The notes below the pieces were generated by a model. The model was given only the letters and a program-made list of their open reading frames with translations. It did no database searches and was not told where the DNA came from. The translations under genes and the position numbers were made by a program. Positions 23,409 through 37,143 of a stretch of 64,000 nucleotides of DNA are shown piece after piece (position 1 is the stretch's first letter; each line of letters starts with the position of its first letter). The DNA comes from Octopus vulgaris (lineage: Eukaryota), in the NCBI GenBank assembly GCA_951406725.2, contig OX597825.1, forward strand, positions 2,790,001 through 2,854,000. Direction: 5' to 3'.

Positions 23409-24255
23409 TATTGTATATATTCTCCTGTGTGTCCAAAAGTTTTGTAAAATGAAGGCGTGATCTGAATTCAATTTGGCTATTAGTTCGTTCTCGGTAACCA
23501 GTCACGTAGAAAAGCTATCATGTCAGTTAGTGAAGATGGTTTTAAGTTTTTCTAACATAAGTGTACGTATAACTTGCAGTTTAGTTTCATGTATTAACAT
23601 AATGCAGACACAGTTTGCTGCAATTTGTTATTCTATATCTTCATTTAGCGTTGTTGATCAGAAGAGAGAAATGCAATAAATAGCAAAATAAAAGGAAAAT
23701 ATATATACTTACAATATATCCTAAAAATAAGGTTGCCATTGTTTTTATTTGTGCCAAGAATTTGTGTATAACGGTTTGCTATTTTTAATAAAGGACATTT
23801 GGCAAATAGAAACGCATAAATGCTCATGCATATTTCATGTCTTGTATGTTGAAGATTTGGAAATTGGCAAACATGTTGAGTTTTTCGGTATCTATATTTG
23901 TGGATTTCAGGTATTGATGTTTTTCATTTTAAATGAAAGTTGACTATTGTTGTACGAGCTAGCTCTTTTTATAACTACATGTCTGGACCCATAACTGTTG
24001 TGTTACAGAACATCGAATTTGAAAGGGATCAGAATTCAAATTAGCTATGTATTTATGTAAGAATATTTTGCGGGTAAGTTATATTCTTCTCAGAATATTA
24101 ATAATGAAACCATTAATTATTGTAAAAAGAATCATTCTAACTTCAAAATTAATTAAAACACGTGAACACTGTGTCTCATTTGACATCTAGACAGAAAATA
24201 ATTTATTTACCTTATTTACATTTCGCGGATATTTGTTCTTACCTCGTTTGTTGTT

Positions 24256-24301
24256 AACACAACGTTTCGGCTGATATACCCACCAGCCTTCATCAGGTGT
24301 C
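24256..24301 (-). ncRNA. Minimal type I hammerhead ribozyme
   Basis: Minus strand GACAC-CUGAUGA-A-GGCUGG-UGGGUAUA-UCAGCC-GAAA-CGUU-GUGUU: stem I GACAC/GUGUU, intact CUGAUGA and GAAA core, 6-bp stem II, palindromic AACGUU stem III, predicted cleavage after GUU (between 24261 and 24260). Confidence 0.8.
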
Positions 24302-24379
24302 TTGGGGAGATTCCGAACCTGAGGTTCTCATTCCTAAGGTATTTTTCGATGATATATTATTATTCGTATTATTATCTAT

Positions 24380-24451
24380 GTCACTGCTTGGAATCGAACA
24401 CAGTATCTTGGGATTAGTACGCCGGGTTATTCACCATTATGCCTTATGTCC
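24380..24451 (-). promoter_or_regulatory. tRNA-like type 2 Pol III promoter inside the PLE 3' repeat
   Basis: 72-nt segment GGACATAAGGCATAATGGTG...GTGTTCGATTCCAAGCAGTGAC with A box AGGCATAATGG (24434-24444) and B box GTTCGATTCC (24390-24399) at tRNA spacing. No valid acceptor stem, so not a tRNA gene. Confidence 0.6.
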
Positions 24452-25511
24452 GTGAGAAATTATGGAGTGGATTTTAGGGCTTATAAATCTAAAATTATCC
24501 TATCATTCCTTAATACCGGTTCCCATATGCTATTCATATCTGGACTCGGACTGCTTACGAGATTGTTATGCCCAAGTATATGAGCTGCTTCTTTTAGTTT
24601 TCGTATTTTCCAGTGGTGTTCTCTGTCAAATATTTTAACTTCATCCCACAGGAGTAGAACAAAATAGAACTATAATTTAAAACAAATTAGTGTTATTTAT
24701 AATACAAATATTTGTGATTTTGTGTATATATTCCATGGCAAATCTGATGAATTTTTTTAACCCATACATTAAAATTGCCTTCATCATCCGTGGAGAAGTG
24801 TATTTATGTATTATTCTTATTTGGTATCTTATTTTGCTTTAACTATTTTATATGTAAAATTTGACACTCAATGAGATTAACTTTTCATTTAACCAAGCAG
24901 CATAGATAAAATAAGATTCAGGGAAAATCTGAGACGAATTTATTAAGTTTTCTCCCGAAATTTATAGCGTTAAGCCGCAACTGAAATTAATACATGCATA
25001 CTTTGGTTTTCATGCACGAGCTTGAAACCAGCACCGCTCCTAATTAATTATAGATATTGCATCATTTAATATTAATATTGACAATAATGAAAAAGGCCCT
25101 CGTTATTAAAATTCAGAAATCTGTAGCACATAACCTAAATCTGAGACGTATTAATATCCTACAATATAGGCAGAATATGCTGATGAACAGCAGCATAATT
25201 GCCATCGGCGTTCAGTTGTATTTGGACATGATGAATTTAATAAATAATATCATTAATTAACACGTGTATATAAGAATTCTGAAAACCTAACTAGGTTACA
25301 TGATTGATAATTAAATGTCTAAAGGTCATAGGCGAAACCAAATTAAACTCTAAAACTTGAATATTCAAGTGAGATATTTATTTATATTATATGCTCACTT
25401 TATGGTTGCATGATTATTTCTTAAATAACTTCCAGTATTTCCACTGGGAATACATATTTTTAATATATATTCTACCTGGAATTAGGTTGGCAGAAGCGTC
25501 GTTATTTGTTT

Positions 25512-34046: not shown

Positions 34047-35282
<1,236 letters not shown>

Positions 35283-35620: not shown

Positions 35621-35744
35621 GAGTCAGAAGTGGTTGTTCGTCAATGTTTACAGATTCACTGGCAACAATTTATACATTCATAATTAAGAAAGACGCCAAC
35701 CAACTCAGCCTGCAAAGCTAAGGCTGAGTTGGAGGCAAAGACCT

Positions 35745-36176
35745 AAGAAGAGATCTTTCAGTAGTCACAGAGAAATGATCAAATTTCTTCCGATAGTCAC
35801 AAAGAGGCGATCCAAGTTCTTCCCTTTGACACAAAAACGTAATCAAAGTAATTTGCATGGACACAAAGAGGAAACCGAAGTTCTCGGGGACACAAAGTGG
35901 TGATAGATGTTCTTCACATGGACACAAAGACGTGATCGAAGTTCTTCTGATGGACACAAAGACATGATCGAAGTTCTTCACATGGGCACAGAGAGGTGAT
36001 CGAAGTTCTTCTGATGGACACCAAGTTGTGAATGATGTTCTTCACATGGACGCAACGTGGTGAAAGAAGTTACCATGGGAACAAAGAGGTGATCGAAGTT
36101 CTTTGGATGGACACAATGGTTGATCGAATTCCTTCACAGTGACAAAAAGAGGAGATCGAAGTTCTCATGGACACAG
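35745..36176. repeat. 32-bp minisatellite, ~13-14 units
   Basis: Unit approximately GACACAAAGAGGTGATCGAAGTTCTTCACATG, with three shortened 29-bp units. Confidence 0.95.
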
Positions 36177-37143
36177 CGAGAAAAGCATGGCGCCAGGTTC
36201 ACGAGCCATAATCTAGTTTCCATTTTTATGTTTCCTAAATTACTGTTTATTTATAAATGGAATACTTTTCTCTTTCCTTTGCAGAAACTCTCAAATTAGC
36301 TCAAACATTCTGTAATTATCAGGCATTATAAATAACCATTCGGAGTAAATAAACACTCACAAAACATCCTCAATATTCACGTGTGTGTGTGTATGTGTGC
36401 ACATATGGATTTATGTATGAGTGTATACATATCATGTGTGTGCTTATATGAGTGCTTATTTTGCCACACAAACATTCATATATAAAAGTATGAGCGTGTG
36501 TGTATATATAAATTGTAAACGTATATTTAGGTTTTTGGGTTCTGTTGTTTCCCTTCTCTCTTTATTGTAATTTCTCGACAGTAACCATGCTAAAACACAA
36601 GTATTCGAGGCAAGAAAGCCGTCTTTCAGTTCTAGTATATTTTCCTCCTAGAACTAAACTATGTAAGCCATGTTTGTAGGATATATGTAAGATGTAGTTT
36701 TTAGTGTCTTCAACTTTTCCAGTCTAACGATATTGCTAACTATTCAAAGCACTTTCGTTGATATCAGTGTTGTCAATACTGCTGCAACTTCCACTGTCAG
36801 GTTTCTGACTACATATATAGACGAAATTCGTAAGAAAATATGTCGAAAAAGTGAAAGAGTCATGAACAATTAGAACGAGAGGGAGAATATTACCAACACC
36901 ACCGTACAAAATCACATAACAGATTTGTGAGTTGTCCCTCCGCCTGTGCATATAAGGAATATTGCAGTGTGTAGACAGGTGTGAAATCTAATTTAAAAAA
37001 ATGCATTAACTCTAGATCTACCTGTCATCAAAAGATCCAGGCTGAATTCCTTTAACTTGCGTTAATCCGAATTCATTCTCTTATGTTTCACTTGCACTCC
37101 TCCCGTCTAAATACGAAGATAATTGTTTAATATTCTATTCTGT

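Follow-up and report, generated by a model that had tools for sequence, protein, structure and literature searches.

The window, the whole 64,000-nt stretch of Octopus vulgaris DNA analysed here (contig OX597825.1, positions 2,790,001 to 2,854,000), holds on its minus strand a 5'-truncated copy of an abundant Penelope element, probably of the Penelope/Poseidon type (Table 1). A first-pass annotation had described a stop codon at 24481, a tRNA-like start at 24451 and a hammerhead at 24301-24256, and this layout was found again. The open frame ends in TAA at 24483-24481. Its 57-aa peptide matched no Pfam family, and sequence comparison identifies it as the C-terminus of a Penelope endonuclease, since other copies extend upstream into GIY-YIG-type and reverse transcriptase (RT) sequence; the GIY-YIG end that had been read upstream of the tRNA-like head was thus correctly named. 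Junctions with an inverted remnant, as in the window copy, also occur in copies L084 and L007.

Table 1. Features of the element copy, in the order in which they are met along the minus strand
Feature	Position in the window	Strand	Remark
Target-site duplication TAAATTAT, 5' side	24672..24679	-	Identical 8-mer at both junctions; candidate, AT-rich
5'-junction remnant of the 3' tail, short and inverted	24655..24671	+	Tail sequence of the family
Penelope GIY-YIG endonuclease, final 57 codons with stop	24481..24654	-	5' truncation at ~24654
Short spacer from the stop codon to the terminal repeat	24458..24480	-	From comparison of copies
tRNA-Arg-like head, including a 6-nt leader; opens the terminal repeat	24377..24457	-	tRNA +1 equivalent at 24451 (= head position 7)
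A box	24434..24444	-	Decayed in the window copy; family form TGGCGTAGTGG
B box	24390..24400	-	GTTCGATTCC core intact
(AAT)n tract	24352..24376	-	Length varies between copies
ATG	24329..24331	-	Non-coding in the window's 3' repeat; opens the 826-codon frame in the 5' repeat of full elements
B-box-like motif inside the reading frame	24309..24319	-	GGTTCGGAATC in the window; family form GGTTCGAAATT, not a canonical B box
Minimal type I hammerhead with palindromic helix III	24256..24301	-	Predicted cut 24261/24260
AC-rich 3' end, no tail	24206..24255	-	The family has two end sites; this copy stops at the inner one
Target-site duplication TAAATTAT, 3' side	24198..24205	-	T4 24198-24195 begins here

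Compared with the family majority, the window copy is identical at 181/197 positions upstream of the head, 63/81 within it and 133/143 downstream, which amounts to about 92% outside the head. The head (24457-24377) is about three times more diverged than the neighbouring parts of the same insertion. Its A box reads AGGCATAATGG in place of the family form, and because this box has decayed, the window copy is unlikely to be a good template for RNA polymerase III (Pol III). Of the tRNA-like A/B-box cassette proposed for this locus, the tRNA derivation and the B-box core stand, but the A box does not, and the promoter anatomy belongs to the family rather than to this copy. The same annotation had proposed a self-contained Pol III RNA of about 255 nt that would cleave itself to about 190 nt. 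The first run of four T residues (T4) 3' of the head does begin at 24198, with none before it, as had been stated. This T4 belongs to the target duplication or flank, so such an RNA would be an accident of the window locus; the repeat itself lacks a terminator, and in full-length elements it continues into the ORF.

Longer copies showed the organization of an EN+ Penelope-like element (PLE), with an RT (RVT_1, E 5.8e-8 in Pfam) followed by a C-terminal GIY-YIG endonuclease in one ORF. The C-terminal segments of these copies gave no match to Pfam GIY-YIG; the endonuclease was read by eye from the motif YSIPCSCG.LY.GET..PL..R..EH, which we take to be the GIY-YIG signature. In L203 and 30 loci chosen by the 5' end of the ORF, the head-to-hammerhead unit also lies upstream of the ORF. 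The pseudo-LTR is present as a partial tandem with the ORF starting inside it, and there is an inverted 5'-truncated arm and an optional 30-40-bp tail. The terminal repeat comprises a tRNA-Arg-like head, (AAT)n, the ORF start through the minimal hammerhead, and two 3' end sites. The majority frame has 826 codons in three in-frame segments and opens at the ATG in the repeat; in the natural copy L243, the frame is open through both the B-box-like motif and the hammerhead. The second B-box-like motif reported at 24319-24309 is indeed present in the window, but it is coding sequence, and its family form departs from a canonical B box. Two copies of a sister subfamily carry in-frame length changes directly after the ORF ATG, as judged by eye. 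The RT is 29-37% identical to those of other PLE families in this genome, which are presumably Neptune-type, and a motif by which Penelope/Poseidon membership is tested was not seen in the translations of the copies.

Several ORF-start copies (L242, L252, L253, L260, L262 and L265) jump from mid-ORF straight to the hammerhead/tail segment, and these joints suggest template jumps during second-arm synthesis. In 4/100 hammerhead-anchored copies (L086, L131, L166 and L171), and also in L245, L265 and L268, the (AAT)n tract is joined not to the head but to the tail of one other repeat; a target preference and a chimeric family are the candidate readings. A different Penelope-like family, young, intact and possibly still active, was seen at L338:1719(-) and L340:580(+). 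It has a 781-aa RT-GIY-YIG frame, a separate 479-aa frame upstream and many equal-scoring copies.

Relatives of the window element were searched for in the genome (2.8 Gb, 227 contigs), and the DNA search gave 5,267 candidates, of which 40 were scored and 30 loci fetched. The head was found between the stop codon and the hammerhead in 30/30 of the closest copies, some of them with internal deletions. Thirty further loci, collected with a different repeat nested in L201, were excluded as evidence; four of them duplicate L201/L202. A count of exact 30-mers across the genome gave 550 matches for the sequence directly before the head, 3,135 for one within the head and 4,460 for one at the hammerhead. 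A one-off SINE insertion as the origin of the head, which would have undone the earlier reading, is ruled out by the 30/30 closest copies together with the 3,135 exact matches.

The majority head is collinear with host tRNAs from head position 7, the best of the 35 host tRNAs sampled (not all isotypes) being tRNA-Arg. Identity to tRNA-Arg is 49-51/73 for the majority head (z ~7) and 43/73 for the window head (z 4.4-5.9), and on this alignment the head is tRNA-derived. Both boxes of the majority head are canonical (TGGCGTAGTGG for the A box, AGTTCGATTCC for the B box), so that what had been read in one copy holds for the family as a Penelope terminal repeat with an A/B-box head and a minimal hammerhead. 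ARAGORN found no tRNA in the window and none in 28/28 head-bearing loci submitted. The Rfam check suggested at the outset was negative as well: at E<=10, neither a tRNA nor a hammerhead was reported on the window stretch or on copy L039. The predicted 5' end of the RNA, in the family form of window 24457-24446, would fold into a C(CACG)G tetraloop hairpin, a loop that we take to be UUCG-like and extra stable.

In a sister subfamily with 80-85% ORF identity, the head, leader and A box are kept in 2/3 copies. Diverged copies of this subfamily lie at L411:4043-4236 (minus-strand reading), L426:3930-4179 and L417; the A box of the subfamily, TAGCGTAGTGGATAA, is closer to tRNA-Arg, and its stem II loop differs. 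No free-standing donor SINE made of the head and (AAT)n was found among 63 head anchors and the fetched DNA. Of these anchors, 14 were flagged as lacking the hammerhead segment and 4 of the 14 carry one on inspection, which leaves 10/63 without it on the same arm, most of them with the break at the AAT tract. When other A/B-box heads of the fetched DNA were compared with this head, their scores were low. A head-less ancestral subfamily was not found in these searches; L417, L408 and L429 lack the head, apparently through jumps at AAT.

We then considered where the copies begin. Of the 3,135 head matches, the first 63 met along contig 1 made up the head-anchored sample, and removal of 3 duplicates or second arms left 60 insertions. 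Forty-seven of these insertions start at head positions -2 to 14, fold-back forms being scored by hand as position 1, and 13 continue at least 20 nt upstream. Only 2.9 starts at the head would be expected from the upstream truncation rate of 0.0024/nt (28 events in 11,895 nt of 30 copies). Most head starts lie at positions 1-7, that is, at or upstream of the tRNA +1 at position 7, and the start position is about 13 nt 5' of the canonical A box. In the hammerhead-anchored sample (the first 100 of 4,460 matches, giving 95 insertions), 13 starts were upstream, 2 at -19 to -3 and 39 at -2 to 18; a further 8 fell in the rest of the head, 25 within the AAT tract and 8 past it.

Such a pile-up could also arise if a longer RNA were cut, or if reverse transcription stalled at a tRNA-like structure or 5' hairpin. 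We consider this very improbable. In its favour, folding predicts a small, stable hairpin where the head begins (-5.2 kcal/mol), and a few starts fall exactly at tRNA +1. However, 22/47 head starts lie at position 2 or earlier, so that they include the whole hairpin and precede the point at which an RNase P-type cut would fall. The degenerate acceptor stem and the lack of a cloverleaf fold in the window head (z +1.5) also speak against it.

An adjacent inverted arm accompanies 29/39 of the insertions starting at head positions -2 to 18. The leader GCCCAC and the GGGC that follows it form a palindrome (GCCC-AC-GGGC), and genome-wide the fold-back junction ATATGCCC has 543 matches, perfect palindromes being counted twice, and the element-continuous AATTGCCC 401. 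Inverted PLE junctions are known to carry palindromes, which have been interpreted as self-priming (PMC3846280, accessible part).

Two observations limit what the pile-up can say about the polymerase. Among the 30 copies selected by the ORF 5' end, a single one begins where the head begins, about 10 have their start at B104-174, and 3 hold pre-head sequence adjoining the head. Many of these ORF-start copies look like jumped second arms; still, head starts are fewer than predicted from a head-started full-length RNA, and this counts against such an RNA. In addition, a head-less, T-rich hammerhead repeat family also has a sharp 5' end, in a similarity sample drawn with a query that itself included this end, so the pile-up alone is insufficient to show Pol III. 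This head-less repeat is about 200 bp long, has 5,086 candidates and is lodged in (TA)n (L086:1249(-), L178:1840(+) and L271-L300); it has no A/B boxes, and no match to the proteins of the tRNA-head family was found within 1.5 kb of it.

The sense strand of the element was examined for terminators. The 2,632-nt sense majority contains 14 runs of three T residues and 0 T4, and the antisense strand 30 T4; having no T4 terminator on its sense strand, the whole element could be read by Pol III. The expected number of T4 was 2.9 after synonymous shuffling (P 0.028), 3.2 when codon usage was taken from the controls (P 0.029), 4.6 after base shuffling (P 0.006), and 2.6 and 1.7 under first- and second-order Markov models (P 0.075 and 0.19), and the absence of T4 is weak against the Markov nulls. 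Natural copies contain 21 T4 in 74,926 nt (0.28/kb), and a second set of 49 loci contains 30 in 75,605 nt (0.40/kb). Four other Penelope-like ORFs of the genome contain 21 in 5,979 nt (3.5/kb), but these control families belong to another clade and encode about twice as much Phe; a same-clade control was not found in the genome. In three raw-read RNA runs (unstranded, fragmented, about 6/100 of each read), the family is present with a depth that tracks genomic copy structure. The organism label of these runs differs from that of most copy holders, and no site with many read starts or ends was seen at the head, although reads of this kind are incapable of showing starts or ends.

It is also conceivable, though we regard it as unlikely, that the head is a passenger, a tRNA-derived insertion at an ordinary Pol II start, and that the short copies are solo repeats of a Pol II RNA. 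Known Penelope repeats do hold Pol II promoters and a start site (PMC2377424, PMC3846280 and PMC6765202, accessible parts), the head-less hammerhead family has an equally sharp 5' end, and the T4 statistics are modest. On the other side, the start has the position expected under a type 2 Pol III promoter, the A box is still canonical in the diverged subfamily, there is no T4 in 2.6 kb, and none of the 15 joints listed between repeat and ORF is of the splice type.

The window hammerhead (stem I GACAC/GTGTT, CTGATGA, stem II, GAAA, palindromic ACGT, cleavage triplet GUU) is the sole match to a minimal-hammerhead descriptor in the 64-kb window. It has the conserved core, stems I and II and palindromic helix III of a minimal type I hammerhead. 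The only frequent non-CpG change in the core sits at the free N7 position (T78/A19). The predicted minimum-free-energy fold is inactive and lies merely 0.6 kcal/mol below the fold with stems I and II. With the minimal type I hammerheads of metazoan PLEs (Cervera and de la Pena 2014, PMC4209133, accessible part), it shares the core CUGANGA..GAAA, the extra base before helix II, the palindromic helix III and the expected need for a dimer or helper; nothing differs in the predicted ribozyme itself. Those PLE hammerheads cleave poorly in vitro, and only as multimers (same part of PMC4209133). The 3' ends of hammerhead-anchored copies fall at B140-149 (49/100) and B171-174 (36/100), with the predicted cut site at B90. 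Since hammerhead-bearing copies end 50-85 nt downstream of this site, their templates were uncleaved.

Short units outnumber endonuclease-bearing copies among the 60 head-anchored insertions (47 vs 13), and with a tRNA-derived head carrying A and B boxes, as seen by alignment (ARAGORN and Rfam being negative), they resemble tRNA-derived SINEs. The first-pass annotation had gone further and proposed a SINE/retrozyme-like module, which in its independent form would be a head, (AAT)n, hammerhead and tail unit with its own masters and a short self-cleaving RNA, mobilised by Penelope. A precedent exists in the schistosome SM-alpha repeats, which pair Pol III with a hammerhead (PMC6765202, accessible part). 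However, no master copies of their own could be discerned. Non-CpG divergence was 3.6% for 86 head-start copies and 4.1% for 67 endonuclease-bearing copies, haplotypes are common to both, and 0/220 sites differ after correction (best p 5.5e-4, inside a variable tandem). The short copies thus have no private diagnostic variants and are of the same age as the long ones. Thousands of head-hammerhead units do stand alone, but the head-to-tail arrays typical of non-LTR retrozymes are rare, with few tandem flags, and an internal terminator is absent. No cut-site-to-cut-site joint was seen among the joints listed from the unstranded, fragmented RNA reads. By analogy, the Poseidon_Ac template needs ORF sequence beyond the tail, which the solo copies do not have. 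An independent lineage is therefore improbable. Because they share haplotypes and age with endonuclease-bearing copies, the short copies are likely solo repeats made from the element's own RNA rather than a separate SINE lineage.

In the explanation that we favour, the RNA would start about 13 nt before the A box and continue into the ORF across a hammerhead that stays uncleaved. By analogy with Poseidon_Ac, reverse transcription by the element's protein would then begin at internal positions, the two end sites. Copying that starts in the first repeat would run off the 5' end of the RNA and yield SINE-like solo repeats of about 250-300 bp, the cDNA of which could fold back at the GCCC-AC-GGGC palindrome and prime the inverted arm. 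Copying that starts in the second repeat of a read-through RNA would give truncated, endonuclease-bearing copies such as the window copy. Taken whole, this account (head-started RNA, internal RT starts, solo repeats by run-off) seems to us reasonably probable, and Pol III is probably the source of the template of the short copies. That Pol III would also read the whole ORF is doubtful; its processivity has been argued to limit such elements to about 1.3 kb (Kojima 2024, PMC10886601, accessible part). We hold equally tentatively the strongest version, an autonomous Penelope element with a tRNA promoter, transcribed by Pol III from end to end through 2.6 kb free of T4, translated from uncapped RNA and giving rise to thousands of solo repeats.

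Much of this anatomy is familiar from Poseidon_Ac of the green anole (PMC11167929) and Adineta Pen2a (PMC3846280, accessible part). Like the octopus element, they have a single ORF for RT and C-terminal GIY-YIG that begins inside the terminal repeat, a hammerhead that overlaps the beginning of the ORF, a pair of 3' end sites separated by about 25-30 nt (the tail), inverted 5' arms, a palindrome at the 5' end of the repeat and AT-rich targets. In Poseidon_Ac, the ORF starts at the hammerhead, and the tail is defined by two internal sites at which reverse transcription begins; ORF sequence past these sites is required, and hammerhead cleavage is dispensable (PMC11167929). The octopus repeat differs in beginning with a tRNA-derived A/B-box head, whereas the described Poseidon/Pen2a repeats have TATA/Inr-like or TATA-less Pol II promoters; the sense strand of the octopus element is free of T4.

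Pol III-type promoters upstream of a hammerhead are found in the schistosome SM-alpha/Sj-alpha repeats (PMC6765202, accessible part), but those are non-coding and often tandem; the octopus unit serves a protein-coding element as its terminal repeat and is dispersed, mostly in inverted pairs. TRIMp3 elements (Cassandra, Helenus and Ajax; Kojima 2024, PMC10886601) likewise have a Pol III promoter derived from a small RNA in the terminal repeat. They are, however, short non-autonomous LTR elements, whereas the octopus element is an autonomous-type Penelope, and the word 'Penelope' is absent from the accessible text of PMC10886601. Animal non-LTR retrozymes (bioRxiv 10.64898/2026.07.22.740005, accessible part) are hammerhead units from PLE terminal repeats, like the octopus unit, and unlike it are defined as tandem arrays; the terms tRNA, Pol III, promoter and octopus do not occur in the text of that preprint. 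Similarly, 'hammerhead' does not occur in the accessible main text of the O. vulgaris repeat paper (PMC13282606). PLE hammerheads, Pol III with a hammerhead in schistosome repeats, Pol III promoters in short LTR elements and PLE-derived retrozymes are thus already known.

No PLE with a tRNA head in its terminal repeat was found in the literature searched, with Repbase, Dfam, SINEBase and supplements outside its scope; the element is of a known kind with an apparently undescribed promoter arrangement. Octopus SINE families derived from tRNA, of tRNA-Arg origin, were reportedly described by Ohshima and Okada in 1994; these SINEs likewise have tRNA-derived heads. The unit may already be filed under a SINE or Penelope name in Repbase, Dfam, SINEBase, the 1994 work or the repeat library of PMC13282606.

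The use of Pol III would be unusual for a protein-coding jumping gene. To our knowledge, autonomous retroelements are held to use Pol II (R2 relying on Pol I read-through), and Pol III promoters mark the non-autonomous SINEs and TRIMp3. If true, a Penelope element started by Pol III would break this division of polymerases between autonomous and non-autonomous elements and show how SINE-like repeats can come directly from an autonomous element. If Pol II is used instead, this would be an ordinary PLE with a captured piece of tRNA, the solo repeats of which could be mis-filed as SINEs. The family is a test bed for where the template RNA of PLEs starts, for the priming of inverted arms, for which the fold-back palindrome gives an exact prediction, and for the role of the hammerhead, a question of interest because the inserted copies came from uncleaved RNA.

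Elsewhere in the window, a 32-bp tandem array lies at 35734-36177, and two perfectly complementary 110-nt arms, 603 nt apart, lie at 34460-35282.
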